Positions 26,348 through 44,081 are shown, counted from the first letter of the stretch. The stretch: DNA of 62,634 nt from Clostridia bacterium (GCA_030527115.1 JAUNBM010000005.1:1-62634), one strand, 5' to 3'. Program-made: numbers and translations. Notes: generated by a model from the sequence alone, not told the origin.

Positions 26348-26513
26348 ACTTTTACGGGCAATAGAGACAAAATGCAACAAGAAAAAAACAAATTACAATG
26401 GCTGTATAAAAATCCAAAGCCTATAATGAATCTGCGGGCTTTCAGCCTCATTTGGGTTGCCCGCTACAACCAATACAAGGGCCGTCTTTGATATTCGGTT
26501 CGGAAAGGATCTT

Positions 26514-27878: not shown

Positions 27879-28167
27879 TCTTGCCACCGTGGTACGCAGT
27901 AAAAACGCAGGCCCTCTTTGGCTCACTTTGGACGTTATGTTCGATGGCGAGGAGAACTTCACCCGCGCAATCCAATCCGAAGCCATAACCCCAAAGTCCA
28001 TTTCCGACCTGTTCGGCGTGCCTGCCGAGAAGGTCAGCATCATACCCTACCCGATAGTAAACTCGATTAAGATAACGATTCCGCGGAATCCCGTCAGCGG
28101 CTCCATAGGCGAGACCGACGTTTATGGCTGTCAGCAGTATCTGCCGCTGTACTCGTTGATGGTTTAA
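27862..28167 (+). CDS. DUF4387-like small protein (AtuA partner)
   Basis: The ATG at 27862 has GGAGG 6 nt upstream and overlaps the AtuA 3' end by 17 nt. Motifs VVRSKNAGPLWLTLDV and DVYGCQQYLPL match my recollection of DUF4387. Confidence 0.65.
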   Translation: MTRLVDLATVVRSKNAGPLWLTLDVMFDGEENFTRAIQSEAITPKSISDLFGVPAEKVSIIPYPIVNSIKITIPRNPVSGSIGETDVYGCQQYLPLYSLMV

Positions 28168-28185
28168 TGGAGGAAACGAAGGCGA

Positions 28186-29097: not shown

Positions 29098-29101
29098 AAA
29101 T

Positions 29102-29725
29102 ATGGCTGTTTATCATTTAAAAACGCCCCTTGCCGAGCAGGATGTTCGTCAGTTGAAAATTGGGGATACCGTTTATCTCAGCGGAAGGGTGTTTACGGGC
29201 AGATCGCGCATCCACCGCTATATCTTCGACGAGGGCAACTCGCTTCCCTTCAGCGTGGAAAGCGCCAACGCCATGATCCATGTCGGCCCCATTGTGACGC
29301 GCCGGGGCGGCAAATGGAATCTCGTCTCCTTCATGCCCACCTCCTCGCTCCGGTTTGAAAAATGGGGCGCGGCTTCGGTTGAAGCGTGGAAACTGCGCAT
29401 GATAGTCGGCAAAACCACGATGGGCAAAAAAACCATGGAGATGATGCGCTCCTTCGGCTGTGTTCACGTTTCGCCGCAAAGCGTCAGCCCGAATCTGTGG
29501 CTGAACTCAATCGAGATACTCGGAGTGGAGCTATTTGAGGAACTTGGCAGTATCGAGGCTTCGTGGCAACTCAAGCTTGACGAGCTTGGCCCCTTCATTG
29601 TCGATATCGACGCTATGGGGAACAATCTGTTTGAAACTATGGATGAGAGTATTGGTAAAGCCCGCGATGCGGCGCTTGAAAAAATGGGCCTGCCGGAGGA
29701 TTTCAGCCCGACGCGCCTTTACTGA
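29102..29725 (+). CDS. class-I Fe-S hydro-lyase beta subunit (fumarate hydratase C-terminal / TtdB type)
   Basis: The ATG at 29102 is 4 nt after the alpha stop. Motifs LKIGDTVYLSGRVFTGRS, GPIV, IVGKTTMG and FIVDIDAMGNNLF. Confidence 0.82.
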   Translation: MAVYHLKTPLAEQDVRQLKIGDTVYLSGRVFTGRSRIHRYIFDEGNSLPFSVESANAMIHVGPIVTRRGGKWNLVSFMPTSSLRFEKWGAASVEAWKLRMIVGKTTMGKKTMEMMRSFGCVHVSPQSVSPNLWLNSIEILGVELFEELGSIEASWQLKLDELGPFIVDIDAMGNNLFETMDESIGKARDAALEKMGLPEDFSPTRLY

Positions 29726-30032
29726 TACCGTTGCAATTCTCCCTATGCGACTGCTTTTCCATTTGGCAGTCGCCCTTTTTTTCGATGTGGCGGTTGCGAA
29801 ACCAGAGCAGAACATCCGCCGAGATCATGAGCAGGTTGATTATATAGAGGATGAGGACTATATCGGGATGATAAAAGATCTTGTGCAGAATCCCAAAACA
29901 ATAGCCTATGACTACGACCATCGAAAAAAGCAGGCTCTTGCCGACCGTACTGCGGCTCTTGTAGGACTTGACTAAGGAAACCGGCCAGGCAAGGCCGAAA
30001 CAGAACAGCATTGCGGCTTCAAAAAAGCTCAT
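29703..30032 (-). CDS. small three-TM membrane protein (PQ-loop/SemiSWEET-like, tentative)
   Basis: The internal ATG at 30032 has AGGGAG upstream. The 109-aa protein MSFFEAAMLFCFGLAWPVSLVKSYKSRSTVGKSL... has three hydrophobic helices. The rest of the 242-aa track ORF runs through the tRNA and was discarded. Confidence 0.5.
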   Translation of the reverse strand: MSFFEAAMLFCFGLAWPVSLVKSYKSRSTVGKSLLFSMVVVIGYCFGILHKIFYHPDIVLILYIINLLMISADVLLWFRNRHIEKKGDCQMEKQSHRENCNGISKGASG

Positions 30033-30284
30033 AATTTTCTCCCTGCAAACATTATCGCTGACGCCAGTATAAGCGCAAAACCCGCGAAAATAAAGTGATT
30101 CGAAGTTAAATTGGAAAAAAAGCAATAATAAAGAGATAAAATGACAGCCGACGCGCCCTATGTGCCCCTCCCTCCCGCCTAAGCTCGCGAAGCTAAAACG
30201 CTCCTTTGGCAGGCAAAAAGCGCCGGAAGTTTCCCGACCGAAAGCAAGGCAAGCGCCCGAATTGTAAAATTTAAGGAATAGGTC

Positions 30285-30313
30285 TTGACAAGGGGGCATA
30301 TAATGAGTATAAT
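30285..30313 (+). promoter_or_regulatory. sigma-A type promoter of tRNA-fMet
   Basis: TTGACA (30285..30290), a 17-nt spacer, then TATAAT (30308..30313). The tRNA 5' end is 25 nt downstream. Confidence 0.65.
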
Positions 30314-30337
30314 TAACGAGCTTAAAGAGCAAGTCGC

Positions 30338-30413
<76 letters not shown>

Positions 30414-30416
30414 TCG

Positions 30417-30448
30417 AAAACGCCGCATCATCGGCGTTTTCTTTTTTT
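30417..30448 (+). terminator. intrinsic terminator of the tRNA gene
   Basis: AAAACGCCG-catcat-CGGCGTTTT (9-bp stem) followed by CTTTTTTT. Confidence 0.8.
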
Positions 30449-30517: not shown

Positions 30518-30585
30518 CATTTATTCTGATAGATTACAGTAATATTCATAAACGCCATTTATCAAAAGATAAAAAAACATGATTT

Positions 30586-30598
30586 TACAAACGTTCAT
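30586..30598. promoter_or_regulatory. TACAAACGTTCAT motif (site 2), in inverted orientation to site 1
   Basis: Read directly. It lies 75 nt upstream of the SBP start codon. Confidence 0.3.
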
Positions 30599-30672
30599 GG
30601 AGCTGTTATCATGTAAGAGGTGGTCGCAGATATGCGAATAAAAATACAAAAAAACCATGGGAGGATAAGTGA

Positions 30673-32277
30673 ATGAAAAGGCTGGTAGCTCTCCTGATTG
30701 CTGCAATCATGATGATTTCATTGTGCGCATGCTCTAAGGACACTAATGATGATCCATCGGACTCCGGCGATGCGACGACAAACGGTTTTGTCGGCACAAG
30801 TGGCGGAGGCTCGGCGGCTGTTTACTCCGCAAAGGATTCGGTCGTTTTCCGGCTGAATGCGGATATTGCAACGCTTGACCCGCACAAGACTTCCGGAACT
30901 GCGAATGAAAGAATAGTTCAGATTCAGTTCTATGAAAGCTTGTTCGGACAAGACCGTTTTAACGACACTACCGAAATCAATCCGCGGCTCGCTGAAAGCT
31001 GGCAGTATCTGGACGATGAAAAGCTCCAGATGGAGATTACGCTCCGCAAGGGCGTGAAGTTCCATAACGGTGACGAGATGACTGCGGACGACGTTGTGTT
31101 TTCCCTGAACAGAGCTAAGGACAGCGGCTACAGCTCCACCTTGGCGGCTTTCTGGGAGAGCGTTGAGAAGATTGACGATTATACCGTTGTGGTTCACCTG
31201 ACCCAGGCATACGGCGCAATCGAGAAGGTTCTTGCGACCCCGAACTGCTCCATCGTGTGCAAGAAATTTACCGAGGAAAGCGGCGACAACCTCGAACGCA
31301 CCCCCTGCGGCACCGGCCCCTATGTGCTTTCGGAGTGGATTACCGGCGACAGCGTTACCGTTACGGCTTTTGCTGATTACTGGAGAGGCGAAGCCGCCAT
31401 CAAGACCGGAAAATTCGTTATCATCACCGACAACAGCACCTATCTTATTGCTCTGGAGAACGGCGAGGTCGATATCTCCAACATGATGGGAACGGCGGAT
31501 GTTCAGACGGTAATCGACAATCCGGATTTGAGCTACACCTCCAGCGGCAGCGGCAACTCCGGACATTGCATCCTGTTTAACTGTGGCGAGGGTAGCATCT
31601 TTGCGGATGAAAGAATGCGCCTTGCAGTCGCCGCTGCAATCGACCGCGAATCCATCTACATCAGCGCCTTCGATGGAAACGGAACTATATCCACAAACAT
31701 TATGAGCATGACCGTAGACGAGTATCCCGAGAACTTTGAGGCGATTCCCTTTGATTTGGAATATGCTAAACAGCTGGTTATCGACGCTGGCTATCCGGAC
31801 GGCGTGACTATTTCGGTGCCTACCATCGAAGCCGCCAACTACAACAAGCCCGCAATCGTCATTCAAGAACAGCTTGGAAAGATTGGAATCCATCTTGAGC
31901 TGGACGTTATGACCAGGGCGGCATGGAATGAAAAGGTTATCGGAAATTCCGACTTTCAGATAACCAACTGGGCGGTCGTTCCCGATTTTGAGGACGCCGA
32001 CGCTATCCTCTATAAACTGCACAGCAACAGCGGCGTGAACTTCTATAACATTAACGACCCTGAGCTGGACGCGCTTCTCGACGCCGGGCGCGCCTTAGAA
32101 CCCGGAGAGGAGAGGAATCAGATTTATCTGGAGGCCTTGGAGCTTATCCGTGATAAAGCCTATGCGATTTCCTTCCTCAAAGATTTACGAAACGTCTCTT
32201 ATAACTCCAAGCTTCAGGGCGTAGTTGCCTTCCCCGAGCAGAGATATCAGCTGTTCAACTTCTGGTGGGCTGAGTAA
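30673..32277 (+). CDS. family-5 ABC substrate-binding lipoprotein (peptide/opine type)
   Basis: Lipobox ISLCACSKD with GGAGG upstream, and family-5 SBP size. Confidence 0.88.
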   Translation: MKRLVALLIAAIMMISLCACSKDTNDDPSDSGDATTNGFVGTSGGGSAAVYSAKDSVVFRLNADIATLDPHKTSGTANERIVQIQFYESLFGQDRFNDTTEINPRLAESWQYLDDEKLQMEITLRKGVKFHNGDEMTADDVVFSLNRAKDSGYSSTLAAFWESVEKIDDYTVVVHLTQAYGAIEKVLATPNCSIVCKKFTEESGDNLERTPCGTGPYVLSEWITGDSVTVTAFADYWRGEAAIKTGKFVIITDNSTYLIALENGEVDISNMMGTADVQTVIDNPDLSYTSSGSGNSGHCILFNCGEGSIFADERMRLAVAAAIDRESIYISAFDGNGTISTNIMSMTVDEYPENFEAIPFDLEYAKQLVIDAGYPDGVTISVPTIEAANYNKPAIVIQEQLGKIGIHLELDVMTRAAWNEKVIGNSDFQITNWAVVPDFEDADAILYKLHSNSGVNFYNINDPELDALLDAGRALEPGEERNQIYLEALELIRDKAYAISFLKDLRNVSYNSKLQGVVAFPEQRYQLFNFWWAE

Positions 32278-32380
32278 ATACGTATTAAGCAAGTCAGGGC
32301 AATGGGGCTGTCCGCTACCATATAGCAACAGGGTGGACAGCCCCTGAAAAATCAAGTCGTATCAAAAAAAGGAGCAACGA

Positions 32381-33376
32381 ATGATAAAATATATCATAAA
32401 ACGAGTGCTAATGCTGATTCCGGTGCTTCTGGGGATATCGCTACTCATATTCACGGTTATGAATATCTCGTCGGGCGACCCTGCGCGCGCGCTGTTGAGC
32501 GATTACGCCTCTCAGGAGGACGTTGACAAGTTGCGCGAGGAGATGGGGCTGAACGATCCGTTCCTGGAGCAGTACGGGCGCTATATATGGAATGCGCTCC
32601 ATGGCGATTTGGGAACGTCTTACCAATCCGGCCAGCCCGTCGTCCAACTCATAGCGCAAAGATACCCCACAACTATCAAACTTGCGCTGGGCTCCATCCT
32701 GCTGTCAATCATTTTTGGCATCCCAATCGGAATACTCTCGGCGGTTAAGCAGTATTCGCTGATTGACAACGCCTCCATGCTCTTGTCGATGCTTTTAACC
32801 TCCACTCCGAGCTTTTGGCTGGGCTTGATGCTACTGATTGTATTTTCGTTGACCCTGCATTGGCTTCCGGCAACGCAGGCGTTGGGAACGCCCACAATCA
32901 AGCACTTTATTCTGCCGTGGATCACCCTGAACTGCATGACTTTTGCGCTCCTAATTCGAATGTCGCGCTCAACGATGCTCGAAGTTATACGGCAGGATTA
33001 TATCCGAACGGCAAAGGCAAAGGGCGCTACGGACAGGCGAGTAACCTTTAAGCACGCATTGAGAAACGCTCTATTGCCTATCGTTACGGTAATCGGCACC
33101 CAGCTGAGCGTACAGCTCGGCGGCTCCGTGGTTGTTGAGAGCGTTTTTGCGCTGAATGGTATTGGGACTATGGCCATCAACGGAATTAAAGCGAAGGACA
33201 CTCCGGTTGTCATGGCGGCGATTATGTTTATCGCAATTGTAGGCGGCATTATTAACCTGCTTGTAGATATCGGCTATGTCTTTATTGATCCGCGGCTGAA
33301 ATCGCAGTTCTTTAAGGGCAAGAAGAAGGAAAAAGCTAAAAATGCCGAACAAAAGCAGTTGCCTTCATCAACCTGA
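32381..33376 (+). CDS. ABC transporter permease (DppB-like)
   Basis: N-terminus MIKYIIKRVLMLIPVLLG, MGLNDPFLEQY, and the loop YIRTAKAKGA. Confidence 0.9.
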   Translation: MIKYIIKRVLMLIPVLLGISLLIFTVMNISSGDPARALLSDYASQEDVDKLREEMGLNDPFLEQYGRYIWNALHGDLGTSYQSGQPVVQLIAQRYPTTIKLALGSILLSIIFGIPIGILSAVKQYSLIDNASMLLSMLLTSTPSFWLGLMLLIVFSLTLHWLPATQALGTPTIKHFILPWITLNCMTFALLIRMSRSTMLEVIRQDYIRTAKAKGATDRRVTFKHALRNALLPIVTVIGTQLSVQLGGSVVVESVFALNGIGTMAINGIKAKDTPVVMAAIMFIAIVGGIINLLVDIGYVFIDPRLKSQFFKGKKKEKAKNAEQKQLPSST

Positions 33377-33440
33377 TGGGTCTTGTATTCGTGACGGCGG
33401 TTTATGCCTTCCATTTAGATGATTTAAGGAGTGATTCACT

Positions 33441-34316
33441 GTGAATAGAAAGCAAAAGAACAAACGCCCTCGCAGTCGTGCCGGAGCAATCTGGTTTCGC
33501 TTTAAGAAGAACAAACTGGCGCTTGTTGGCGTAGTCATTATATTTATTATGTCGGTGCTTGCAATCTTTGCCGGAGTTATCGTCGATTACCAGGCGGATG
33601 TGGTTGAGCAAAACGCCGCAATCCGTATGCAACCTGCCTCGGGTGATCACATCCTTGGCACGGACAGTTACGGCAGGGATATATTCGGGAGAATCGTATA
33701 CGGGGCAAGGACTTCCCTGGCGGTCGGGTTATCCGTCGTCGGTCTCGCCCTGATAATGGGCGGCGTTGTCGGTTCTATTGCAGGCTACTTTGGCGGAACT
33801 ATAGATATAATTATCATGCGGTTCATGGACATCCTGCTTGCAATTCCTAGTTTGATTTTAGCGATGGCCGTGGTCAGCGCGCTGGGGACGGATATCAAGA
33901 ATTTAACGCTTGCGCTGGCTATCGCTCACACCCCGCAGTTCGCACGAGTGGTTCGCGCCGCAGTTATGCCGCTCAGAGGGCAGGAATACGTGGAGTCCGC
34001 CCGCGCATTCGGAACAAAGAATTTCCGTATCATAACAAGGCATATCTTGCCTAACGCCTTTGGGCCGATAATCGTTCAGGCAACGATGCAAATAGGAACG
34101 GCAATACTTAATATTTCGTCCCTGAGCTTCATCGGGCTCGGAATACAGTCCCCCGCCCCCGAATGGGGCAGTATGCTTGCGGAAGCGAGGGAGTATCTGC
34201 GATATGAGCCAACCTTGGTGCTTGCGCCCGGTATCTGCATTATGCTTGCCGTTTTCTCCTTTAACCGCATCGGAGACGGCTTGAGGGACGCCTTGGATCC
34301 TCGCCTTAAAAACTGA
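33441..34316 (+). CDS. ABC transporter permease (DppC-like)
   Basis: GTG start with AAGGAG upstream. Motifs LGTDSYGRDIFGRIVYGAR and EYVESARAFG. Confidence 0.88.
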   Translation: MNRKQKNKRPRSRAGAIWFRFKKNKLALVGVVIIFIMSVLAIFAGVIVDYQADVVEQNAAIRMQPASGDHILGTDSYGRDIFGRIVYGARTSLAVGLSVVGLALIMGGVVGSIAGYFGGTIDIIIMRFMDILLAIPSLILAMAVVSALGTDIKNLTLALAIAHTPQFARVVRAAVMPLRGQEYVESARAFGTKNFRIITRHILPNAFGPIIVQATMQIGTAILNISSLSFIGLGIQSPAPEWGSMLAEAREYLRYEPTLVLAPGICIMLAVFSFNRIGDGLRDALDPRLKN

Positions 34317-34336
34317 ACCTGAGAGGAATATCGTTC

Positions 34337-35335
34337 ATGGATAATATACTTGAGATTAAGGATTTGAATGTTGTATATGAGACGGACGAGGCCACGTTCT
34401 ACGCGATCAACGGGCTGAATCTGACGATGCAACGCGGCGAGATGATTGGACTGGTTGGCGAGACCGGCGCCGGAAAGACTACCACGGCGCTGAGCGTCAT
34501 GCGGCTTTTGCCGGATCGCATAGGCAAGATTGTCTCCGGCTCAATCCGCCTGAACGGGGTGGAGATTACAAAGGCGACAAAGCACGATATGCAGATTATG
34601 CGCGGTGAAATCGTCTCCATGATATTTCAAGACCCAATGACCAGCCTCAATCCGCTCATCCCTATCGGAAAGCAGATTGAGGAAGCCCTGATCCTGCATA
34701 AAAAGGATATGCCGTCTCAGGAGAGGAAACAACAGGTCGACCGCCTGCTGACGATGATTGGGCTTTCGCCTGACCGCAAGATGGAATATCCGCACCAGTT
34801 TTCCGGCGGCATGAAGCAGAGAATAGTTATTGCGATGGCTCTTGCTTGCGAACCCCTGCTCCTCCTTGCCGATGAACCGACGACGGCTTTGGACGTTACG
34901 ATTCAAGCTCAGGTGCTGGATATGATGAAGCGGCTGAAGGAGGAGTTCAATACCGCCGTTATCCTGATAACGCACGACCTGGGCATCGTTGCACAGACGT
35001 GCAGCAGAGTCGCCATAATGTACGCGGGCGAGATAATTGAAATCGGCTCGGTCGAAGCGATATTTACCCCCGGCGTGCATCATCCTTACACCACGGGTTT
35101 GTTTGGTTCCATACCGGATATCAAGTCTACGACCCGACGGTTGAACCCAATAAACGGCCTAATGCCCGACCCTTCGATTCTATTCACGGGATGCAGATTT
35201 GCAGAACGCTGTCCGCATGCTATGCCAAAATGCAACAACCAGCGACCAACGGTATATGAAAAGGACGGGCATAGCGTTCTTTGCCATCTGTACGGACAAA
35301 AGAAGGCAACCACTATGCAGGAGGACGAAAAATGA
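34337..35335 (+). CDS. ABC transporter ATP-binding protein (DppD/OppD-like)
   Basis: Walker A GETGAGKTT, signature FSGGMKQR and Walker [12 protein letters not shown]. Confidence 0.9.
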   Translation: MDNILEIKDLNVVYETDEATFYAINGLNLTMQRGEMIGLVGETGAGKTTTALSVMRLLPDRIGKIVSGSIRLNGVEITKATKHDMQIMRGEIVSMIFQDPMTSLNPLIPIGKQIEEALILHKKDMPSQERKQQVDRLLTMIGLSPDRKMEYPHQFSGGMKQRIVIAMALACEPLLLLADEPTTALDVTIQAQVLDMMKRLKEEFNTAVILITHDLGIVAQTCSRVAIMYAGEIIEIGSVEAIFTPGVHHPYTTGLFGSIPDIKSTTRRLNPINGLMPDPSILFTGCRFAERCPHAMPKCNNQRPTVYEKDGHSVLCHLYGQKKATTMQEDEK

Positions 35336-36288
35336 CTGTGCCATTGATTGAAACAAGGAACTTAAAAAAATACTTTAATACGCCGCGAGGCCTTTTGCAC
35401 GCCGTTGATAACATCAACATCAAAATTATGCGCGGCGAGACGCTCGGCCTTGTCGGAGAGTCCGGTTGCGGAAAGTCCACCTTGGGCAGAGTTTTGCTCC
35501 GGTTGATTTCAGCGACCGACGGCGAAGTTTTATATAATGGCGAGAACATCTTGGAATACAAGAAACAGCGCATGAACGAAATGCGCAAGAAGATGCAGAT
35601 AATATTTCAAGACCCGTATTCCTCCCTTAACCCCCGTATGTCGGTTGCAAGCTTGATTGAGGAGCCTTTGAAGGTATGCGGCATCTGCGCCAACGCAAAG
35701 GAGCGTAACGAGCGCGTCGACTATCTGATGCGCACGGTAGGACTGGCGCAACGCTTTAAAAACTCCTATCCGCACGAGCTGGACGGCGGCAGGCGACAGC
35801 GCATCGGCGTCGCGCGCGCCCTCTCGGTTGAGCCGGAGCTGATAGTTTGCGACGAGCCCGTCTCCGCCCTCGATGTGTCCATTCAAGCTCAGATTCTGAA
35901 CCTGCTTATGGATTTACAGGAGGATAAGGGCCTGACCTATATCTTCATCACTCATGATTTGAGCGTTGTGAAGCATATCAGCACGCACATCATGGTTATG
36001 TATTTGGGGCAGGGCATCGAATATGCCGAAAAGAACGAGCTTTTCGCCAACTATAAGCATCCCTACACGGAGGCCTTGCTGAGCGCAATCCCGCTTCCGA
36101 GCATCCGCCCCGAAGACCGGCTCAGAAACATCATCGCAGGCGAGGTTACCAGCCCCATCAACCCCAAACCCGGATGCCGCTTCGCCCCGCGATGCCCCTA
36201 TGCGAAACCCGAATGCCAGGCGGAGGATATCCCCTATGTGGAAGTATCGCCCAATCATTTTGTTGCGTGTCTGCGTTACCGCAAGTAA
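35332..36288 (+). CDS. ABC transporter ATP-binding protein (DppF/OppF-like)
   Basis: The start was trimmed to MTVPLIETRNLKKYF, with AGGAGG upstream and an ATGA overlap with the previous stop. Walker [10 protein letters not shown], signature LDGGRRQR, and [10 protein letters not shown]. Confidence 0.9.
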   Translation: MTVPLIETRNLKKYFNTPRGLLHAVDNINIKIMRGETLGLVGESGCGKSTLGRVLLRLISATDGEVLYNGENILEYKKQRMNEMRKKMQIIFQDPYSSLNPRMSVASLIEEPLKVCGICANAKERNERVDYLMRTVGLAQRFKNSYPHELDGGRRQRIGVARALSVEPELIVCDEPVSALDVSIQAQILNLLMDLQEDKGLTYIFITHDLSVVKHISTHIMVMYLGQGIEYAEKNELFANYKHPYTEALLSAIPLPSIRPEDRLRNIIAGEVTSPINPKPGCRFAPRCPYAKPECQAEDIPYVEVSPNHFVACLRYRK

Positions 36289-36297
36289 GGAGTAGCC

Positions 36298-37293
36298 ATG
36301 TATCTGCGAGATTTAGAGTATTTCATAGAGATTTGCACGGTTCGCAGTCTGACGAAGGCCGCGAAGAACGTGTATGCCACACAGCCCGCGATGTCCGCCG
36401 CCGTGAAGCGGCTCGAAACCGAATTGCAAGGCGAATTGCTGGTTCGCCAGCGAAAAAAGTTTGAGCTGACCGAGCTGGGCGAAATGCTGTATGAGGCGGC
36501 AAAGCGGATGGTTGCCGAAAGGGAGGAGATCTTCCTTCGCGCCGCCGATATAACCGATAACGCGAACCGAACCATCACCATCGGCATCACCGCCTCCTAT
36601 GGGCGCACCTTTCTGCCCTATGTTTACTCGGAGTTTCACCGGAAAAACCCACGGATTAAAACTCGTTTTGTCGTGTGCCATTGCGGCGATTTGAAGGACA
36701 AGCTGAACCAGGGCGAAATCGACGCGGCAATAATGTGGACTGCCTTGGACGACGATTCGTTTTCGCAAAAAGTTCTGTTCCATGAGCGGATGATTCTGGT
36801 GATGCGCATGGACGATCCGAATAACAAGCGTGGCTTCATACACGAGAAGTATAATAAGCCCTTCATCAACCTGTCCGATTTGAAAGACGCTCCCTTTTTG
36901 AGCTATTCCGGTGAGCGAACGGACTTGTGCGAGATAGTGAACGCCGTTTGCAAGGAGGCTAAATACGCACCAAATGTGCAGGGACGCTTTAACCAGTCGT
37001 CCATCATCCTCTCGATGGTTCTCTCCGGGCTGGGCGTTGGCTTGGTTCCGTGGAACAGCGCCGTCAACGGGGATATGCGCCTGATAAGCGACTCGCTTCG
37101 CGCCTACAATGTGTTTGGCGTAAAAGCTCAGCGCTGTTACATTTTCGCCTATAAGGAGGGCAAATACCTCTCCAAAAGCGTTTTGTCGTTGCAGGACGCC
37201 TGTTTGGCGTCGCATGAGCAGATAAACCTGCAAAGCGATGAGTTGCAGTTTTTCGCTAAGTGTGCGGAAGAAAATCCGGGCACGACGGATTAG
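36298..37293 (+). CDS. LysR-family transcriptional regulator
   Basis: N-terminal HTH LRDLEYFIEICTVRSLTKAAKNVYATQPAMSAAVKRLE with a LysR substrate-binding domain. It sits mid-operon on the same strand. Confidence 0.88.
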   Translation: MYLRDLEYFIEICTVRSLTKAAKNVYATQPAMSAAVKRLETELQGELLVRQRKKFELTELGEMLYEAAKRMVAEREEIFLRAADITDNANRTITIGITASYGRTFLPYVYSEFHRKNPRIKTRFVVCHCGDLKDKLNQGEIDAAIMWTALDDDSFSQKVLFHERMILVMRMDDPNNKRGFIHEKYNKPFINLSDLKDAPFLSYSGERTDLCEIVNAVCKEAKYAPNVQGRFNQSSIILSMVLSGLGVGLVPWNSAVNGDMRLISDSLRAYNVFGVKAQRCYIFAYKEGKYLSKSVLSLQDACLASHEQINLQSDELQFFAKCAEENPGTTD

Positions 37294-37317
37294 CCCGATG
37301 CGTCCGAAGGAGGTTTT

Positions 37318-38016
37318 ATGACAGGCGAACCCTTGAAAAGCGAAAAACTCCGACCTTCAAAAGCCCTGTTGGAGCGGTTTGCGGCGCACGATGTGGCAAA
37401 ATTGTCCGACTCGATGGGCAAATATGGCGCTTTGCGAAGCAACATTAAGCCCCTGTCCGACGCTATGCGCGTCTGCGGCCCCGCTTTGACCGTAAAAAGC
37501 ATGCCCGGCGACCCGTCGTGGGTCGATTTGATAGCTGAAGTTGCGCAGGCGGGCGATGTTGTAGTAGTTGCCGCCGATGAAATAGAGGACTTGATGATTG
37601 CTGATAAGGCGGTATGCGACAGGCTGAAAGCGCTCGGAATCGCCGGGCTCGTTGCCGACGGCGCGCTCGCGGACAAGCAGACCTTCATCGAAAAGGGGTT
37701 GCCGGCATTTGTAATATGTACGACGCAGAGACGCCTTTACAAGCAGGACGGCGCAACGGTAAACGAACCCATTTGCTGTTCCGGCATGATAGTCTGCCCA
37801 GGGGATTTGATTGTCGGGGATTCGGACGGGGTGGTCGTAGTTCCGGGCTATGATTTGGAGCGCGTGATAGAGCTGGCGGACAGGCAACTGCAAAAGGAAT
37901 TGCGCAACAGAAGCGTTCTGATGACGGGCGTTTCCCCGAGGGAGTACTACGGCTTTGAAGCCAAGATGGATAAATGGCGGGAAGCTTTACAGAATCAGGA
38001 GCGAAAGGGCTTATGA
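37318..38016 (+). CDS. RraA/HMG-aldolase-fold protein, paralogue 1 (catalytic motif degenerate)
   Basis: RraA-like layout (CGPALTVK ... GDVVVVAA ... GIAGLVADGALADKQ ... PGDLIVGDSDGVVVVP). The family DGxxRD motif reads DGALAD. 232 aa with a C-terminal helical extension. Confidence 0.8.
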   Translation: MTGEPLKSEKLRPSKALLERFAAHDVAKLSDSMGKYGALRSNIKPLSDAMRVCGPALTVKSMPGDPSWVDLIAEVAQAGDVVVVAADEIEDLMIADKAVCDRLKALGIAGLVADGALADKQTFIEKGLPAFVICTTQRRLYKQDGATVNEPICCSGMIVCPGDLIVGDSDGVVVVPGYDLERVIELADRQLQKELRNRSVLMTGVSPREYYGFEAKMDKWREALQNQERKGL

Positions 38017-38618
38017 ACAGGCACGCATTGCACGGGATAGTCCATGATGCGATTGAACGCCCGCCAACCGAAATAGTGGAGCGGTTCAAAGCATTTTCGG
38101 TTGCAACAATAGCAAGAGCCTGCCGTGGAAACGGTTTGATGCACCATGAAATAAAGCCGCTTAACCCAGGGATTAGGATCTGCGGCCCTGCCGTAACGCT
38201 GTTCGGGCGGCAAGGGGACGCAAATATGTATCAAGGCGTTCCTGACAGCCTGCGACCGGGGGACATTGTGATTGGTGACGCCGCAGGCGCAAAATCGCTG
38301 GCAGTTTGCGGAGAGCGGGTCGCCTATAATATCTGCCGCCTTTTCAAGGCCGGCGGCATGGTGATCGACGGAGCTATCAGGGATAAGGCCGGTATGGAGG
38401 AGGAAGGCGTGCCCATCTTCTATCGCGGGGTCGACCCAAAGCTATTCGGAGCGAGCGGCCCCGGCGCGATAAACGTTCCGGTTCAATGCGGGGGAGTGAT
38501 TGTTTATCCCGGCGACTTAATTATCGGGGACAGGGACGGGGTTATCGTCATAAAACGCGGCGAAATCCTAAAGGTTTTGGAAAAGGTGGACTGTGGAAGT
38601 GAACGATCGGGGGATTGA
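38013..38618 (+). CDS. RraA/HMG-aldolase-fold protein, paralogue 2 (motif intact)
   Basis: The start MNRHALHG overlaps the previous stop (ATGA). Motifs CGPAVTL, GDIVIGDAAG, GGMVIDGAIRDKAG and PGDLIIGDRDGVIVI. Confidence 0.85.
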   Translation: MNRHALHGIVHDAIERPPTEIVERFKAFSVATIARACRGNGLMHHEIKPLNPGIRICGPAVTLFGRQGDANMYQGVPDSLRPGDIVIGDAAGAKSLAVCGERVAYNICRLFKAGGMVIDGAIRDKAGMEEEGVPIFYRGVDPKLFGASGPGAINVPVQCGGVIVYPGDLIIGDRDGVIVIKRGEILKVLEKVDCGSERSGD

Positions 38619-38619
38619 C

Positions 38620-39120
38620 ATGGATTTTTGCAAACTTCGTCCATCCGAGATAGCGGAAGCGCTTGGCTATTACGGCGCTTTGGAAACGGATATAAGAGCG
38701 ATGACGGATGCAACTTTTATCTTCGGCGCGGCAAAGACGGCCTGGGGCTTGCCCGGGGATTTGTCCTATATCGAGCCCTTGCTTCCGACGGTAAGGAGGG
38801 GCGATATCGTTGTGATTGACGCGGGAGGTAAGCTGAATCTGTCGAGCCTGACAAACGAGATGATTGAAGCCTTCATTGCCGCCGGCGCGGGGGGAATTGT
38901 TTTAAACGGGAGTTTGTTTCAGCACGCGGCTTTTGAAATCCCGGTTTTTGCAAAGGGGGTGCATCCACGAACTGTTGGCAACGCGGGCCGCTGTCGAATC
39001 AACATTCCGGTAGTTTGCGGAGGCGTTGCCATCTGTCCCGGCGACTATATCATTGGTAACGGCGAGGGGTTGATATGCGTCAAGCCGGAGGAGATGAATT
39101 TGTTGGAGCGACTGCTCTAA
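38620..39120 (+). CDS. RraA-fold-like protein, paralogue 3 (short, motif lost)
   Basis: The start MDFCKL is 1 nt after the previous stop. It has the same fold landmarks (GDIVVIDAGG, PGDYIIG), but DGxxRD reads NGSLFQ and GDxDG reads GNGEG. Confidence 0.7.
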   Translation: MDFCKLRPSEIAEALGYYGALETDIRAMTDATFIFGAAKTAWGLPGDLSYIEPLLPTVRRGDIVVIDAGGKLNLSSLTNEMIEAFIAAGAGGIVLNGSLFQHAAFEIPVFAKGVHPRTVGNAGRCRINIPVVCGGVAICPGDYIIGNGEGLICVKPEEMNLLERLL

Positions 39121-39169
39121 AAAAGCTAAAGCGGTTTTAGTAACTCACAAAAGACAAGGAGAAATGGAA

Positions 39170-39964
39170 ATGAAGAAGACAAAACTGGCAGACATGACAT
39201 GGGTTGAGGTCAAGGAATTAGTCCAAGAACGGCACCCCGCCGTCATTGTACCGATTGGCACAAACGAAGCTCAGGGACTGCATATGCCCATGGGTTACGA
39301 TCATTTTGTTGCCGAAGCAATCTCGATTAAAGCGGCTGAGCGATGCAACGCGGTTGTCGCGCCTACGATTTGCTACGGATATTCCGAGCTGTTCAAGGAG
39401 TTTCCCGGCACATTGACGCTTCAACCGGAGACCTTACAAAACCTGATATACGACGTTACCGTGTCCTTGCTTCGCGCTGGATTTACGCATATCGTATTTA
39501 TGAACAATCATGACCCCAACACGCCGATACTCGGCTTCGCCATGCAACGCATCCGAAACGAGTTTGGCTATATCATGCCCGCTATCTGGCCGACCAGCCT
39601 TGCGCGCTATTTCGCCAAGCCCCTGTTTTCAAACGCCGACCGCATTCTGGTACACGGAAACGAGCCGGGAACCTCGCTGTGTATGGCGCTGTTCCCCGAA
39701 AAAGTGCGGCTCGATTTGGCTACGGAGACGCCGTCTTTAAAGACCTTTGGCGATATTCCGTTCGATCAGTTTTTAACCCTCGAACATGAGGGGCAGAAGG
39801 TTCAGAGCTTTACCCGGGCAAGCGATGTTTCGGAAACCGGAGCGCTCGGTTATCCCGACTCCTACGATCCCGAAATCGGTGCGCAGATTGTGGAGTCGAT
39901 GGTGAACTACACAGCTTCCTTTGTTGAAAGGTATCTGAAAACCGACAATAATCTTGGGGTATGA
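39170..39964 (+). CDS. creatininase-family (cyclic amidohydrolase / MftE-like) protein
   Basis: VPIGTNEAQGLHMPMGYD resembles the family E-x-H-G-x-H-L-P...D region with the first His replaced by Gln, and HGNEPGTS occurs later. The start is taken at the second ATG (AAGGAG 8 nt upstream); 39164 is an alternative. Confidence 0.78.
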   Translation: MKKTKLADMTWVEVKELVQERHPAVIVPIGTNEAQGLHMPMGYDHFVAEAISIKAAERCNAVVAPTICYGYSELFKEFPGTLTLQPETLQNLIYDVTVSLLRAGFTHIVFMNNHDPNTPILGFAMQRIRNEFGYIMPAIWPTSLARYFAKPLFSNADRILVHGNEPGTSLCMALFPEKVRLDLATETPSLKTFGDIPFDQFLTLEHEGQKVQSFTRASDVSETGALGYPDSYDPEIGAQIVESMVNYTASFVERYLKTDNNLGV

Positions 39965-39967
39965 ACC

Positions 39968-41170
39968 ATGCCAAACGAAGTTGAGCAAGCAATTCAAAAT
40001 GAAATCTCGCAGATTTTAAGCGAGATAATTTCCTTCCGCAGAAAGGTGCATTCCGCGCCCGAACTCTCTTTGCAGGAATGGGAAACTTCCCGTCTTATCC
40101 ATGAGACGCTTCAAAGCTTCGGGCTGATGGGGGAATACATTACGCCGGACAAGCGCGGAATCCGCTTGATAGTGGATGGGAATCTCCCCGGCGACACGAT
40201 TGTACTTCGCGCCGACATGGACGCTCTGCCGATGCAGGAGATAACGCAACTGCCGTTTTGCTCTAAGAACGCGGGTGTTATGCACGCTTGCGGGCATGAT
40301 ATGAATTCCGCATTCCTCATGGGCGCCGCAGTCGTTTTGTCCAGGATGCGCGAGAAGCTCCGGGGCCGCTTAGTCTTCCTTTTCCAATGCGCGGAGGAAA
40401 ACTTTTTGGGCGCAAAGGAGGCTATTGCCGCGGGCGTACTCGACGGGCTGAACCCCAGATATCTGTTTGCTTTTCACGGTAATCCGGGCTTTAAGGTTGG
40501 AACTATAGCTCTGCGTTGCGGTCAGGCGATGTCCGCCGGAGTAAAACTGCGCATCGTTGTTAAGGGTCAGGGTGGTCACGGCGGCTTCCCAAACTCGACC
40601 ACCGACCCGATTACCATTGCGGCGCAAATCGTGATGGGCTTGCAAACTCTCGCGGCGCGAAAGCACCATCCTTCCGACCCACTGGTTATCAGCATCTGCT
40701 CGATTCAAAGCGGAACCGTATTCAACGTTACCCCCGCCGACGCGGTTATGGAGGGCACGGTGCGCTATTTTAACGAGCGTCTCGGTGAACAACTGCCCGT
40801 GTGGATAAAAAGGCTTTGCGAGGGAACGGCTCAGGCCTACGGCGCTAATTGCGAGGTGGAATACGAGCTGATGTGCCCCGCGATGATTACCGGCGATGAG
40901 ATATTCAATTATGCCGACCGCGCCTTTAAAAAGGAATTCGGAAGCGAATGCGTATTCCATGCGCCCCAACCGGTTATGGGCTCGGAGGACTTTGCATGGT
41001 TTTCGCCGTTCGGGCAGGTTATGCAGGTGAGAATCGGAACTCAATTTGACGACCCCAGGAGCAAACTGCCTCTGCACAACAACGGGGTTGTGTTCAGCGA
41101 GGATGCAATTCCGATTGGAATCCGCGCCATATGCGCTTTAGCTTTTGAAAATGGCGAAGCATCACAATAA
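39968..41170 (+). CDS. M20-family amidohydrolase (N-acyl-amino-acid amidohydrolase type)
   Basis: Motifs LRADMDALPMQE, MHACGHDMNSA and CAEEN. Confidence 0.88.
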   Translation: MPNEVEQAIQNEISQILSEIISFRRKVHSAPELSLQEWETSRLIHETLQSFGLMGEYITPDKRGIRLIVDGNLPGDTIVLRADMDALPMQEITQLPFCSKNAGVMHACGHDMNSAFLMGAAVVLSRMREKLRGRLVFLFQCAEENFLGAKEAIAAGVLDGLNPRYLFAFHGNPGFKVGTIALRCGQAMSAGVKLRIVVKGQGGHGGFPNSTTDPITIAAQIVMGLQTLAARKHHPSDPLVISICSIQSGTVFNVTPADAVMEGTVRYFNERLGEQLPVWIKRLCEGTAQAYGANCEVEYELMCPAMITGDEIFNYADRAFKKEFGSECVFHAPQPVMGSEDFAWFSPFGQVMQVRIGTQFDDPRSKLPLHNNGVVFSEDAIPIGIRAICALAFENGEASQ

Positions 41171-41186
41171 AACTTTGGAGGGAAAG

Positions 41187-41885
41187 ATGAAATTAGGAAA
41201 TCGGTCTTTTGAACAATTTGAACGTGCGCCGAGGGCGCTGGTGGAACTGTTCCGTGGGATTCCAATTGCGAATATCGCGGACAACATGGGCAGAATCTCC
41301 TGCGTGGATCAGGGAATAAAGCCCATGAACAAGGAATGCCACATTTTGGGCGTTGCTTTTACGGTTAAGGAATGTGCGGGCGACAATCTTATGTTCCATA
41401 AGGCTCTTGATATGTTTCAACCCGGCGATGTGCTTGTGATTGACGGCAACGGCTGTATGGAGCGGTCGCAATGCGGGGAAATCATGAGTACCTATGCTTA
41501 CAAGCGCGGCTGTGCTGGCATAGTAATCGACGGCGTAATAAGGGATCTCGCCGGAATTCGTAAGCTCCCCCTCCCCATCTATGCCAGGGGCGTTCAGGCG
41601 AACGGCCCGTTTAAAAACGGCCCGGGCGAGATAGGCGTGCCCGTTCCCATCGGAGGAATCGTAATCTATCCCGGCGATATTATCGTGAGCGACGAGGACG
41701 GCCTTTTGGCAATTAGGCCACATGAGGCGGAGGAACTCGCAAAATTGGCGAGAGCCACCTTTGAATCGGAGACAAGGCTGTTGGAGCATATGCGCGAGAC
41801 CGGCGAATGGGACAGGAAAGTTTTTCGAGACGCGGTAACCAATTCCGGCGTTGAGATTATCGACGAAGCCTACCGTTATTGCTGA
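41187..41885 (+). CDS. RraA/HMG-aldolase-fold protein, paralogue 4 (motif intact)
   Basis: The start was trimmed to MKLGNRSF, with GGAGGG upstream. Motifs GVAFTVK, GDVLVIDGNG, GEIM, GIVIDGVIRDLAG and PGDIIVSDEDGLLAI. 232 aa with the same C-terminal extension as paralogue 1. Confidence 0.85.
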   Translation: MKLGNRSFEQFERAPRALVELFRGIPIANIADNMGRISCVDQGIKPMNKECHILGVAFTVKECAGDNLMFHKALDMFQPGDVLVIDGNGCMERSQCGEIMSTYAYKRGCAGIVIDGVIRDLAGIRKLPLPIYARGVQANGPFKNGPGEIGVPVPIGGIVIYPGDIIVSDEDGLLAIRPHEAEELAKLARATFESETRLLEHMRETGEWDRKVFRDAVTNSGVEIIDEAYRYC

Positions 41886-41894
41886 AAAGTCCAA

Positions 41895-41922
41895 CGGGGG
41901 GCGGCTTTCCCCCCGCTTTATC
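41895..41922 (+). terminator. possible terminator after the RraA block
   Basis: CGGGGGG-cggcttt-CCCCCCG (7 G:C pairs) followed by only a weak T-tract (CTTTAT). Confidence 0.4.
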
Positions 41923-41952
41923 CAAATAATCTACTGAATGGAGAGGGCATTG

Positions 41953-42381
41953 ATGTTAAAGGAAAGAGCGCGATACTATTATCTGGAGCAGGATTATAAT
42001 TGTGCGGAAGCGATAGCCCACGCCGCAAACGAAGTTTATGGGCTTGGGCTCTCAAAGGATAGCCTGAAGCTGATGAGCGGCTTCGGCGGCGGTATGTGCT
42101 GTGGAAAAACCTGCGGGGCTGTCTGCGCCGCGCTGGCCGTTATCAGCAGATGTGCGGTCTCTGAACGGGCGCACGCAACCTGCGGCTTTAAGGAGCTTTG
42201 TGCGGACTTCATTTTAAAATGCGAAAAGGGATTTGAATCCCTGGACTGCGCCATAATAAAGGACAGGAATGCTACGGAAGCGGAGCGGTGCTATAAGACG
42301 GTCGAATGCGTTATAGATTTGCTGGAAGCATATCGCGCCGAAACCTATTTCATCGCTGAAATTCCAAAAGGAGCGAAATAG
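41953..42381 (+). CDS. C_GCAxxG_C_C-family putative redox protein
   Basis: NCAEAIAHA near the N-terminus and GGGMCCGKTCGAVCAALAVI. The start was trimmed to the ATG with a GGAGAGGG RBS. Confidence 0.75.
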   Translation: MLKERARYYYLEQDYNCAEAIAHAANEVYGLGLSKDSLKLMSGFGGGMCCGKTCGAVCAALAVISRCAVSERAHATCGFKELCADFILKCEKGFESLDCAIIKDRNATEAERCYKTVECVIDLLEAYRAETYFIAEIPKGAK

Positions 42382-44081
42382 TGAAAGTCGTTATAATCGG
42401 CGGCGGTTCGGGCGGTGCATCCGCCGCCGCGCGCATTCGCCGTCTCGACGCTCAAGCCGAGATTGTCATGCTCGATAAGGGCGAGCATGTGTCCTATTCG
42501 AGCTGTGCCTTGCCCTACTATATCGGCGGGGATATTGAAGCCTCCGAGGATTTAATCCTTGTAACGCCCGAGCTTTTTTTAAAACGCTACCGCATTGACG
42601 CGCGCGTAAACAGCGAGGCGGTGGGCATTGACAGGCAGGGCAAGCGGGTAACCGTTCGCGAAACCAAAACGGGACGAACCTATGAGGAGTCCTACGACAA
42701 GCTTCTGCTCGCCACCGGCGCGAAGCCCGTGATTCCCAAAAGTATCAAGGGAATCGACTCGCCAAAGGTATTCACGGTTAGAAACGTAACCGATATCCGG
42801 AAATTGAAAGCCTTTGCGGATTCTAAGGAGGTTAAAAGCATCGCCGTTATCGGCGGAGGCTTCATTGGAATCGAAATTGCCGAGAATTTTAAAAAAGCGG
42901 GCAAGGAGGTGAGCCTGATCGAGGCTACCGGACAGATCCTCGCCCCTTATGATTATGATATGGTACAGCAACTCCAAAAGGAGCTGATGGATAACAACGT
43001 AAGACTGTATGTATCTTCCAAAGCGATGGAGATAACCGATAGCGGAGTTATCGTCGAAAGAAAAAACTCCGCCTTCCATGTTGCCGCCGACCTTGTAGTT
43101 CTGGCGGCAGGCGTTGCTCCGGATACAGCTTTGGCCGCCCAATGCGGACTGGAGCTAACCGAAAACCGTTCGATACGGATAGATTCGACCTGCCGAAGTA
43201 GCGACCCCGACATATATGCGGTGGGCGACGCCACGGCTACATACTTGCTTTTGGAACGCGGCTTCGGCAATATCGCGCTTGCCGGGCCCTCGCAAAAGCA
43301 GGCGCGGGTTGCCGCCGACAACATCGCCGGTCTGAACAGCGTCGACAGGGGGCATATCGTTAGTTCCTGCATCAGAGTTTTCGGTCTTAACGCCGCCTGC
43401 ACGGGCATGAACGAAAAAACCCTTGAACGCTTAAAGATTCCCTATGACTTCGCCTTTGTATTGCCGCCCGATAAGGTTGGGATTATGCCTGAGAGTCACT
43501 ATATGGCCTTTAAACTGCTGTTTGAAGTGCCGAGCGGAAGAATACTTGGGGCGCAGGCCATCGGTAAGGGCGAGGTTGTAAGACGCATCGACGTTATCGC
43601 GGCGATGCTGAGGCTCAATGGAACGCTCGACGATTTAAAGGAGCTGGATCTTAGCTATTCTCCGGTGTTCGGGACGGCAAAGGACGTTGTAAACATAGCC
43701 GCGCTGGTTGGGCTAAATCTGCTCCACGGCAGAATCGCGCAAGTTCATGTTTCCGCGGTGCGAAAGCTCGCGGAAAGCGGTGCGTTTATTTTGGACGTTC
43801 GCGAGCCGGGGGAGTATCGGCGCGGCCACATTAAAAACGCCGTCAATATTCCGCTCTCACAGCTTAAAGAACGGATGGACGAGATTCCAAAGGAGCGTCC
43901 GGTCTATCTCCATTGCCGAACCTCACAGCGGAGCTACTATGCTATCTGCGAACTGCAAGGGCGCGGCTATCGAAACGTTTGGAATATCAGCGGCTCTTTT
44001 TTAGGGCTTTCCCTGTTTGAATACTTTAACGACATTGACGGGGAGCGCGAGCCGATAGTGACCGCCTATAACTTTGATTAG
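42381..44081 (+). CDS. CoA-disulfide reductase / NADH-oxidase-family flavoprotein fused to a rhodanese domain
   Basis: GTG start with AAAGGAG upstream. FAD motif VVIIGGGSGGASAA, redox Cys in SYSSCALPYY, NAD motif AVIGGGFIGIE, GD motif YAVGDA, and a C-terminal rhodanese domain with active-site loop YLHCRTSQRS. Confidence 0.88.
   Translation: MKVVIIGGGSGGASAAARIRRLDAQAEIVMLDKGEHVSYSSCALPYYIGGDIEASEDLILVTPELFLKRYRIDARVNSEAVGIDRQGKRVTVRETKTGRTYEESYDKLLLATGAKPVIPKSIKGIDSPKVFTVRNVTDIRKLKAFADSKEVKSIAVIGGGFIGIEIAENFKKAGKEVSLIEATGQILAPYDYDMVQQLQKELMDNNVRLYVSSKAMEITDSGVIVERKNSAFHVAADLVVLAAGVAPDTALAAQCGLELTENRSIRIDSTCRSSDPDIYAVGDATATYLLLERGFGNIALAGPSQKQARVAADNIAGLNSVDRGHIVSSCIRVFGLNAACTGMNEKTLERLKIPYDFAFVLPPDKVGIMPESHYMAFKLLFEVPSGRILGAQAIGKGEVVRRIDVIAAMLRLNGTLDDLKELDLSYSPVFGTAKDVVNIAALVGLNLLHGRIAQVHVSAVRKLAESGAFILDVREPGEYRRGHIKNAVNIPLSQLKERMDEIPKERPVYLHCRTSQRSYYAICELQGRGYRNVWNISGSFLGLSLFEYFNDIDGEREPIVTAYNFD

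Follow-up and report, generated by a model that had tools for sequence, protein, structure and literature searches.

We analyzed a 62,634-nt stretch of DNA from a Clostridia bacterium (GCA_030527115.1 JAUNBM010000005.1:1-62634), in which 12 tightly packed genes at 30673-41885 (+) encode a peptide-type ATP-binding cassette (ABC) importer, a LysR-family regulator, two amidohydrolases and four RraA-like proteins (A, B, C and D). Hereafter, this whole stretch is termed the window, and all coordinates refer to its + strand unless otherwise noted. The block appears to be a LysR-controlled catabolic operon in which the two amidohydrolases feed two lyases, one composed of A, B and C and the other of D; we assign this proposal as a whole a probability of roughly 0.55. 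That the cluster is a catabolic unit of this general kind is highly probable, and the view that A, B and C form a heteromer, based on sequence comparison, is favored with less certainty. The data below show which genes are present, that their order is conserved, how the residue patterns differ, that A, B and C share an ancestry, and that the cluster is rare; that the genes are co-transcribed and that a hetero-oligomer assembles is inferred, as are the pathway's direction and chemistry.

Family assignments are based on calling of open reading frames (ORFs) and on Pfam and NCBIfam profile scans, and gene junctions were read directly from the sequence. The 12 genes, all in one orientation, are as follows.

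30673-32277, +, family-5 solute-binding lipoprotein (SBP) of a Dpp/Opp-type importer (PF00496, 262 bits; lipobox ...SLCAC)
32381-33376, +, ABC permease, DppB-like (BPD_transp_1_N and BPD_transp_1)
33441-34316, +, ABC permease, DppC-like (OppC_N and BPD_transp_1)
34337-35335, +, ABC ATPase, DppD-like (ABC_tran and oligo_HPY)
35332-36288, +, ABC ATPase, DppF-like, ATGA-coupled to the DppD-like gene (ABC_tran and oligo_HPY)
36298-37293, +, in-line LysR-family regulator (HTH_1 and LysR_substrate)
37318-38016, +, RraA-like A, 232 aa (PF03737, 101 bits)
38013-38618, +, RraA-like B, 201 aa (PF03737, 106 bits)
38620-39120, +, RraA-like C, 166 aa (PF03737, 76 bits)
39164-39964, +, creatininase-fold amidohydrolase, termed Creat2 (PF02633, 183 bits; cutoff, 31)
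39968-41170, +, M20D-type aminoacylase/carboxypeptidase, termed M20 (Peptidase_M20 and M20_dimer; TIGR01891; motif MHACGHD)
41187-41885, +, RraA-like D (PF03737, 154 bits; PRK06201)

An initial annotation, made from the sequence alone, had counted thirteen genes in this block, where ORF calling gives 12. All of its family assignments were upheld by the ORF calls and profile scans, and its junctions proved exact: ATGA overlaps at 35332-35335 and 38013-38016, and gaps of 1 nt (38618/38620) and 3 nt (39964/39968). The four RraA-like proteins all exceed the PF03737 cutoff of 24.5 bits and belong to that superfamily. For D, the most likely start is the ATG at 41187, which is preceded by a GGAGGG ribosome-binding site and fits the N-termini seen in orthologues; with the TTG at 41145 as start, the ORF would run into the M20 gene.

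The four RraA-like paralogues had been described simply as four copies, but their residue sets differ and only that of D is complete. We aligned all RraA-like copies, including those of related loci recovered by search (L001 and so on), to the Pseudomonas putida HMG/CHA aldolase 3NOJ (HMG, 4-hydroxy-4-methyl-2-oxoglutarate; CHA, 4-carboxy-4-hydroxy-2-oxoadipate), whose numbering is used here. In this enzyme, Arg123 is essential for enolate stabilization, and Asp124 and Glu199 are acidic metal ligands (PMC5065237). In the window, D retains Arg40, Asn71, His75, Gly101, Glu102, Arg123, Asp124, Lys147 and Glu199, and across the loci nearly all D proteins carry the same set, with Arg or Lys at position 40 and Asp or Glu at position 102. 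D is of the canonical full-length type, matches 3NOJ at 9.6e-30, and is the only paralogue with the full HMG/CHA-aldolase residue set. It also passes the model for PRK06201, an uncharacterized RraA-like subfamily (244.1 bits; cutoff, 231), while A (139 bits), B (144 bits) and C (89 bits) do not. None of the four reaches the LigK equivalog models, with D scoring best (144 versus a cutoff of 179 for NF006731; 125 versus 304.5 for TIGR02798) and A, B and C lower.

The remaining three paralogues are each incomplete in a different way. In B, Gly101, Glu102, Arg123 and Asp124 are invariant and the pocket is lined by Ala or Thr at position 71, Gln75, Phe or Tyr at position 145, and Ala147, but the protein stops about 30 residues early, so that the tail carrying His/Arg195-Glu199 is missing. 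In the window B, the essential Arg happens to be residue 123 in the protein's own numbering as well. An AlphaFold 2 (AF2) model of B (predicted local distance difference test score, 86) has 3NOJ as its best PDB match, with a template modeling (TM) score of 0.86 and a root-mean-square deviation of 1.6 Å. A has the tail, including an invariant Glu199-equivalent in all loci, and keeps Asp124, but never carries Gly101/Asp102, Asn71 or His75 in any locus. Arg123 of A is found only in lineages that also encode a second creatininase-like protein, Creat1; in the window and in L031, L034 and L038, all without Creat1, the position is Ala or Cys (Ala in the window). C has neither the tail nor any of the catalytic residues. 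Among the subunits its sequence evolves fastest (mean pairwise identity, 35% versus 55% for B), yet it is present and intact (166–186 aa) in every lineage. Because A and C of the window lack Arg123 and B lacks the tail ligand, the four paralogues are not equivalent enzymes, and the A/B/C trio appears better read as subunits of one enzyme.

The relationships of A, B and C to other proteins are consistent with this reading. All three share the same best outside relative, a full-length RraA-like type of 222–236 aa represented by P0100 (identities of 39%, 52% and 33% to A, B and C, respectively) and P0125 (38%, 42% and 34%). Proteins of this type carry the core signature of B (Ala71, Gln75, Gly101, Glu102, Arg123, Asp124, Phe145) together with a tail that resembles that of A (His195, Glu199 and a ...K[I/L]xxW ending). 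Their genes adjoin M20 genes in two places, one in the alphaproteobacterium Agaricicola taiwanensis and the other in another Dpp cluster. The first (L042:8910-17748) consists of a LysR gene, an RraA-M20 pair, an SBP1-type ABC importer and a second RraA-M20 pair; the other (L040:2981-13948) runs SBP5, two permeases, GntR, RraA, RraA, M20, RraA, M20 and a fused ATPase. Neither contains a creatininase gene. In the second RraA of L042 and in one RraA of L040, Arg123 is replaced by Thr. RraA-like/M20 gene pairing beside importers is seen in Clostridia, in a lineage labeled Spirochaetales and in an alphaproteobacterium. The simplest history for the trio would be that an M20-associated RraA-like gene of full length was triplicated and that the copies then shed complementary parts: the tail in B, the core in A, and both in C. 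Such losses are expected if A, B and C assemble, because the active site of the 3NOJ fold reportedly lies between neighboring subunits, with Glu199 serving the metal site of the neighbor.

One alternative is that A, B and C work independently of one another, some as pseudoenzymes, and act like E. coli RraA as protein-binding regulators or inhibitors, for example of the neighboring hydrolases or of an RNase. The absence of the essential Arg123 from A and C of the window would fit this idea, as would the fact that the RraA fold is known as a non-catalytic protein inhibitor (PDB matches include 1q5x and 2yjv). In L040 and L042, moreover, RraA-like genes pair one-to-one with M20 genes, which could mean a physical partnership. 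On the other hand, Gly101, Glu102, Arg123 and Asp124 are invariant in B and in all of its full-length relatives, and these residues mark the catalytic subclass rather than RraA of the E. coli type. Scores against the NCBIfam models for the RraA regulator (NF006875 and TIGR02998; cutoff, 136) are only 32–45 bits for A, B and C and 85 bits for D, and the short length typical of the regulator (about 160 aa) is seen only in C, which scores 38 bits. Finally, the losses in A and B are complementary rather than random. We regard independent action of the three proteins as improbable.

To ask whether the cluster is maintained elsewhere, we used Creat2 (matches of 46–74% identity) and the truncated B (46–69%) as orthologue probes and examined the matching contigs for gene order. 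The order SBP5, two permeases, two ATPases, [Creat1], [LysR], A, B, C, Creat2, M20, in which brackets denote genes that are not always present, was found in at least nine sequence-distinct lineages, and every locus recovered with the truncated-B probe shows this architecture. Between lineages, synonymous sites are saturated, and all ORFs are nonetheless intact. The B/C junction is an overlap or a 1-nt gap in 9/9 loci. Nonsynonymous divergence (dN) increases in the order Creat2 ~ SBP < B < M20 ~ A < C; dN/dS values are mostly unusable due to saturation of dS, and changes are too few in the only close pair, L002/L003. Because the gene order recurs and the ORFs remain intact despite synonymous saturation, the cluster, as judged from these comparisons, is a selected functional unit and no chance juxtaposition, in line with what the initial annotation had supposed. 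The complementary residue losses, the strict co-occurrence of the three genes and their coupled junctions are the indirect grounds on which we favor the heteromer.

Three layouts can be distinguished. In the first, seen in the window, L031, L038/39 and L034/35, Creat1 is absent and LysR is in line, with D, a C_GCAxxG_C_C gene and a gene for a CoA-disulfide-reductase-like flavoprotein with a rhodanese domain (CoADR-RHD) downstream wherever the contig continues. In the second (L001/L036 and L006), Creat1 and LysR are both present. In the third (L033/L044, the L002 family and L045), Creat1 is present without LysR, and one or two D-like RraA genes lie divergently upstream; the L002 family and L045 also carry an M55 peptidase gene and C_GCAxxG_C_C, while CoADR-RHD is found in the L002 family and is absent from L045. 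The LysR gene occupies an identical position in L031, L034, L038, L001, L036 and L006, and its product in the window scores above no NCBIfam equivalog cutoff. In the window clade, Creat1 and Arg123 of A are missing together, a hint that the ancestral pathway had a second, A-dependent branch that was lost there, although this is only a lead, as the association represents a single phylogenetic event. The most detailed version of our proposal, namely an obligate A/B/C hetero-oligomeric lyase (possibly 1:1:1) that arose by triplication and complementary degeneration, that acts in an as yet undescribed amide-conjugate catabolic pathway of gut and rumen anaerobes, and whose window clade lost the Creat1/A-Arg123 branch, is more tentative, and we rate it at somewhat below an even chance.

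The cluster is very rare in databases. Scans of 185,579 species-representative genomes yielded a close Creat2 orthologue in only three species representatives, and only five metagenome loci with the cluster were found among 241 million records. In 1.84 billion representative proteins, the C-type subunit forms only about 10 clusters, after which scores fall to those of generic RraA-like proteins. A word-indexed homologue search with C returned nothing above 31% identity; C-type relatives surfaced only in the exhaustive search. The named hosts are uncultured rumen or gut Clostridia known as metagenome-assembled genomes (MAGs), apart from the one B orthologue labeled Spirochaetales. Creatininase-like matches from alphaproteobacteria (L010-L030) lack RraA, M20 or Dpp neighbors and were set aside as unrelated family members. 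L032 was considered as an independent Creat2-M20-D module (L032:10001-12589), but its Creat2 is truncated at the N-terminus, with Arg in place of His120, and the M20 gene is broken into two ORFs, D being intact, and hence we treat it as a decaying copy and weak evidence. Its surroundings include a NicX-like gene, a class V aminotransferase, a branched-chain-type ABC system, Amidohydro_1, LysR and a flavodoxin-like reductase.

Creat2 is the most conserved enzyme of the cluster. Using the ligand numbering of the binuclear site of P. putida creatininase (Glu34/His36/Asp45/His120/Glu183), Creat2 keeps Glu34, Asp45 and His120, as well as His178; His36 is invariantly replaced by Gln, and Glu183 is unaligned. 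Creat1, which does not occur in the window, has the canonical His36. The AF2 model of Creat2 superimposes on the creatininases 3A6E and 1Q3K with TM scores of about 0.74–0.75, in agreement with its membership of the PF02633 fold. Against the creatininase model TIGR04448, Creat2 scores 100.8 bits (cutoff, 235), and it also falls below the cutoffs for MftE and IolN. The M20 protein scores 296.9 bits against TIGR01891 (cutoff, 153.75) and contains the MHACGHD motif and the dimerization domain, which places it in the M20D subfamily of N-acyl-amino-acid amidohydrolases. Its best PDB match is B. subtilis YxeP (4.8e-70), followed by ILR1-like enzymes and an N-acyl-glutamine aminoacylase, and it lies below the cutoffs for CpsA and DoeB2.

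The importer comprises SBP_bac_5, two BPD_transp_1 and two ABC_tran plus oligo_HPY proteins and is of the Dpp/Opp type. Its SBP is a generic cluster-C family-5 protein, with PDB matches to 5u4o (an uncharacterized SBP), HbpA, the agropinic-acid binder AgaA, and GsiB/YliB. It lies far below every NCBIfam equivalog cutoff, its best matches being GsiB, NikA and Opp4A; in the case of the glutathione importer GsiABCD, the score is 150 bits versus a GsiB cutoff of 594. Orotate/carboxymethylhydantoin, opine lactams, N-malonyl amino acids, pyroglutamyl peptides and pantothenate were considered as substrates, and none had discriminating support.

Evidence regarding the last step of the pathway comes from the edges of the cluster. 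A gene of the class II pyruvate-aldolase type, either D-type RraA or HpcH/HpaI, is found at the cluster edge in 4/4 lineages with visible flanks. D lies downstream in the window type, and D-like genes lie upstream in the L033 and L002 types. In L001/L036, the slot of those D-like genes is taken by a divergently oriented HpcH/HpaI class II pyruvate aldolase gene upstream of the cluster (L001:1-508; L036:871-1605 (-)). This looks like non-orthologous displacement by an unrelated but functionally convergent enzyme. A further locus, from a Bacillota MAG of the Soudan mine (L007:501-11348), contains a Creat2 orthologue (48% identity) directly upstream of M20, in a run with a GntR regulator and a tripartite ATP-independent periplasmic (TRAP) transporter, then an unknown 457-aa protein, an old yellow enzyme (OYE) reductase, a D-type RraA and a pyridoxal-phosphate (PALP) enzyme. 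Here the enzyme set is accompanied by another type of transporter. Because D keeps the catalytic set, an aldolase-type gene stands at the cluster edge, and HpcH/HpaI replaces the D-like genes in L001/L036, these sequence data support a 4-hydroxy-2-oxo acid or an oxaloacetate-like acid as the end point of the pathway.

We envision the operon as substrate-inducible, with the in-line LysR protein as its regulator. The family-5 SBP and the Dpp-type ABC system would import a compound that is peptide-like or of the N-acylated amino-acid type. Its amide bonds would then be cleaved by Creat2 and the M20D aminoacylase; one of these bonds may be in a ring or otherwise unusual and the other an N-acyl-L-amino-acid bond. 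The released 2-oxo acid would be the substrate of RraA-fold, Mg2+-dependent lyases, acting by C3-C4 cleavage or beta-decarboxylation. One of these, D, would be a conventional homo-oligomeric lyase of the HMG/CHA-aldolase or oxaloacetate-decarboxylase type. The second would be a single hetero-oligomer of the degenerate paralogues A, B and C, in which B provides the enolate-stabilizing Arg and the metal-binding Asp/Glu core, A provides the tail metal ligand in trans, and C has a structural role without catalysis. A sequence of import, amide hydrolysis and C-C cleavage had been put forward earlier; it fits the families, the residues of D and the HpcH/HpaI exchange, although the four RraA-like copies are not equivalent and the lactam or N-acyl substrate is a guess.

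Several observations weigh against this proposal. Activity without a tail is known for some short RraA proteins, and B might conceivably function on its own; such short active proteins reportedly use an alternative R-D-x-x-E/D motif, and the corresponding motif of B, R-D-x-x-G, lacks this substitute. The retention of Arg123 by A in Creat1-bearing lineages is unexplained by a simple one-site model. The pocket of B differs from that of HMG/CHA aldolase (Asn71 to Ala/Thr, His75 to Gln and Lys147 to Ala), which may mean that the reaction is not an aldol cleavage. In Creat2, the replacement of His36 by Gln alters the metal-2 site. The cluster contains no aminotransferase or dehydrogenase that could turn a released amino acid into a 2-oxo acid. 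Lastly, the study that names Glu199 as a metal ligand does so without stating which subunit supplies it (PMC5065237).

Transcription signals and neighboring genes bear on the extent of the unit. Features flanking the block are as follows.

30338-30413, tRNA-Met (CAT) gene, directly upstream of the block
30584-30612, +, candidate sigma-70-like promoter, TTTACA-17-TATCAT with a TG extension, ~60 nt 5′ of the SBP start (consensus match only)
41938-42381, +, C_GCAxxG_C_C redox-type protein, a possible accessory gene (PF09719)
42381-44081, +, CoA-disulfide/persulfide-reductase-like flavoprotein with a C-terminal rhodanese domain, a possible accessory gene (Pyr_redox_2 and Rhodanese)

The tRNA-Met gene has its own sigma-70 consensus promoter at 30285-30313 (a perfect 12/12 match), and a strong terminator behind it (30416-30441) sets the block apart from upstream transcription. 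We found no convincing terminator inside the 12-gene block and, in an Rfam scan, no riboswitch or leader ahead of it. Between D and the C_GCAxxG_C_C gene, at about 41893-41913, lies a G6/C6 hairpin, GGGGGGCGGCTTTCCCCCCGC, with a short T-tract; this may be a partial terminator dividing the two redox genes from the block. The transcription unit may extend to 44081 and include these two sulfur-redox genes, because their synteny with the cluster recurs in two non-sister lineages, as seen in L031, L038/39 and the L002-type loci. The pair does not adjoin the cluster in L001/L036 and L033. The CoADR-rhodanese fusion scores 401 bits against TIGR03385, below the cutoff of 579. The gene that follows it in the window, for an OGG glycosylase, is convergent.

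These redox genes raise a second alternative, in which the operon serves a sulfur-containing conjugate, such as glutathione, Cys-Gly or mercapturate-type conjugates, or succinated cysteine. M20 would then hydrolyze N-acetyl-cysteine or Cys-Gly, an oxaloacetate-like moiety would be taken off by the RraA-fold enzymes, and the redox pair would handle the thiol or persulfide. GsiB is the best NCBIfam match of the SBP, whose PDB matches include the glutathione binders HbpA and YliB. The best PDB match of M20, YxeP, belongs to the oxaloacetate-yielding S-(2-succino)cysteine route of B. subtilis, and we count it in favor of this idea. C_GCAxxG_C_C and CoADR-RHD stand behind the cluster in both non-sister lineages, with a GNAT gene next after the redox pair in L002-type loci. 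However, all of these likenesses are at the family level, under the equivalog cutoffs; the redox pair is not beside the cluster in L001/L036 and L033; the hairpin separates it from D in the window; and the cluster contains no C-S lyase or gamma-glutamyl enzyme. Redox synteny and the GsiB-like and YxeP-like affinities weakly allow a sulfur-conjugate substrate, and we consider an operon dedicated to such compounds unlikely, on a par with independent action of A, B and C.

It is less likely still that the block is a plain operon for peptide or dipeptide uptake and hydrolysis with the RraA-like genes as unrelated passengers or decaying duplicates: a Dpp-type transporter and an M20 peptidase are a common pairing, the L002 type adds an M55 D-aminopeptidase, C evolves fast (dN of 0.58–0.66 versus the nearest relatives of the window) and L032 shows that the module can decay, but the A, B and C ORFs are intact, with constant length and order across synonymous saturation and phyla, B is more conserved than M20, and the edge of the cluster holds an aldolase-type gene in all four lineages in which it can be seen.

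Some other features of the window were noted. Just upstream of the tRNA gene, at 26457-29725 (+), a gene for an AtuA-family protein precedes those for a class I fumarate-hydratase-type hydro-lyase (alpha and beta subunits), and these genes may form another small organic-acid unit. A long antisense ORF at 29703-30431 is an artifact of the tRNA-Met region. A SAM (S-box) riboswitch at 1527-1612 (-) and a glycine riboswitch aptamer at 49254-49339 (+) score above the Rfam gathering thresholds and are unrelated to the cluster. At 60000-62300, the + strand shows a very strong skew (GC skew, -0.41; AT skew, -0.28) and is C/T-rich, indicative of purine-rich coding on the minus strand.

If the proposed catabolic operon with its A/B/C lyase is correct, the trio would be, as far as our literature search shows, the first heteromer known for the RraA/HMG-aldolase fold. 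It would provide a clean natural case of a homo-oligomer converted to a hetero-oligomer with pseudo-subunits through complementary loss, and a handle on the recurrent and unexplained pairing of RraA-like and M20 genes next to importers. The RraA-like family is poorly understood outside aromatic catabolism and RNase E regulation. Once the substrate of the operon is identified, gut/rumen metabolism would gain a new route for nutrient or conjugate degradation. Because the cluster is rare, its ecological weight is probably small.

The initial annotation knew of no described pathway that combines these families, and our literature search, which covered RraA with creatininase, M20 or gene clusters as well as creatininase-family functions, likewise returned no report of such a cluster. 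The component families are all known, and the logic of transporter, hydrolase and lyase is ordinary. Among characterized systems, HMG/CHA aldolase/oxaloacetate decarboxylase (LigK/GalC/ProA type; P. putida F1, 3NOJ) shares the fold and length class, with D keeping R40, N71, H75, G101, D/E102, R123, D124, K147 and E199 and B its core (TM score, 0.86). However, the cluster lacks an aromatic meta-cleavage context, all four paralogues are under the LigK equivalog cutoffs, and B differs in its pocket (A/T71, Q75, F145, A147) and has no tail. HMG/CHA aldolase forms a homo-oligomer, whereas in the cluster one job appears to be divided among three unequal paralogues. E. coli-type RraA, the RNase E regulator, has the same fold and represents a trimer-forming family, but the cluster copies are far below its model cutoffs, their gene context is metabolic rather than RNA-related, and B and D carry the catalytic Arg-Asp, which the regulator class does not need. 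FlDet, a Flavobacterium RraA-family 2-keto-3-deoxy-glucarate dehydratase/decarboxylase, illustrates that the RraA fold acts on other 2-oxo acids in catabolic clusters (PMC8563752); it differs in belonging to a sugar-acid pathway, in having a single subunit, and in being accompanied by neither amidohydrolases nor a peptide importer.

The hydrolases and the importer compare with known systems in a similar way. Creat2 has the fold of creatinine amidohydrolase (P. putida; 1J2T/3A6x) and of other PF02633 proteins such as MftE and IolN (TM score, 0.74), but its identity to creatininase is about 25%, His36 is Gln, Glu183 is unaligned, and it is under all three cutoffs. The cluster M20 shares TIGR01891, MHACGHD and the dimerization domain with M20D amidohydrolases (YxeP, ILR1-like, Corynebacterium N-acyl-glutamine aminoacylase, CpsA), yet is under the CpsA and DoeB2 cutoffs. 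The importer has the five-component architecture and SBP_bac_5 fold of Dpp/Gsi/opine-type systems (GsiB, HbpA, AgaA, AccA), from which it differs in that its SBP is under every equivalog cutoff. Relative to these systems, what appear to be undescribed are the conserved combination of families, the wider RraA-like/M20 pairing and, above all, the three-paralogue RraA-fold enzyme with pseudo-subunits.

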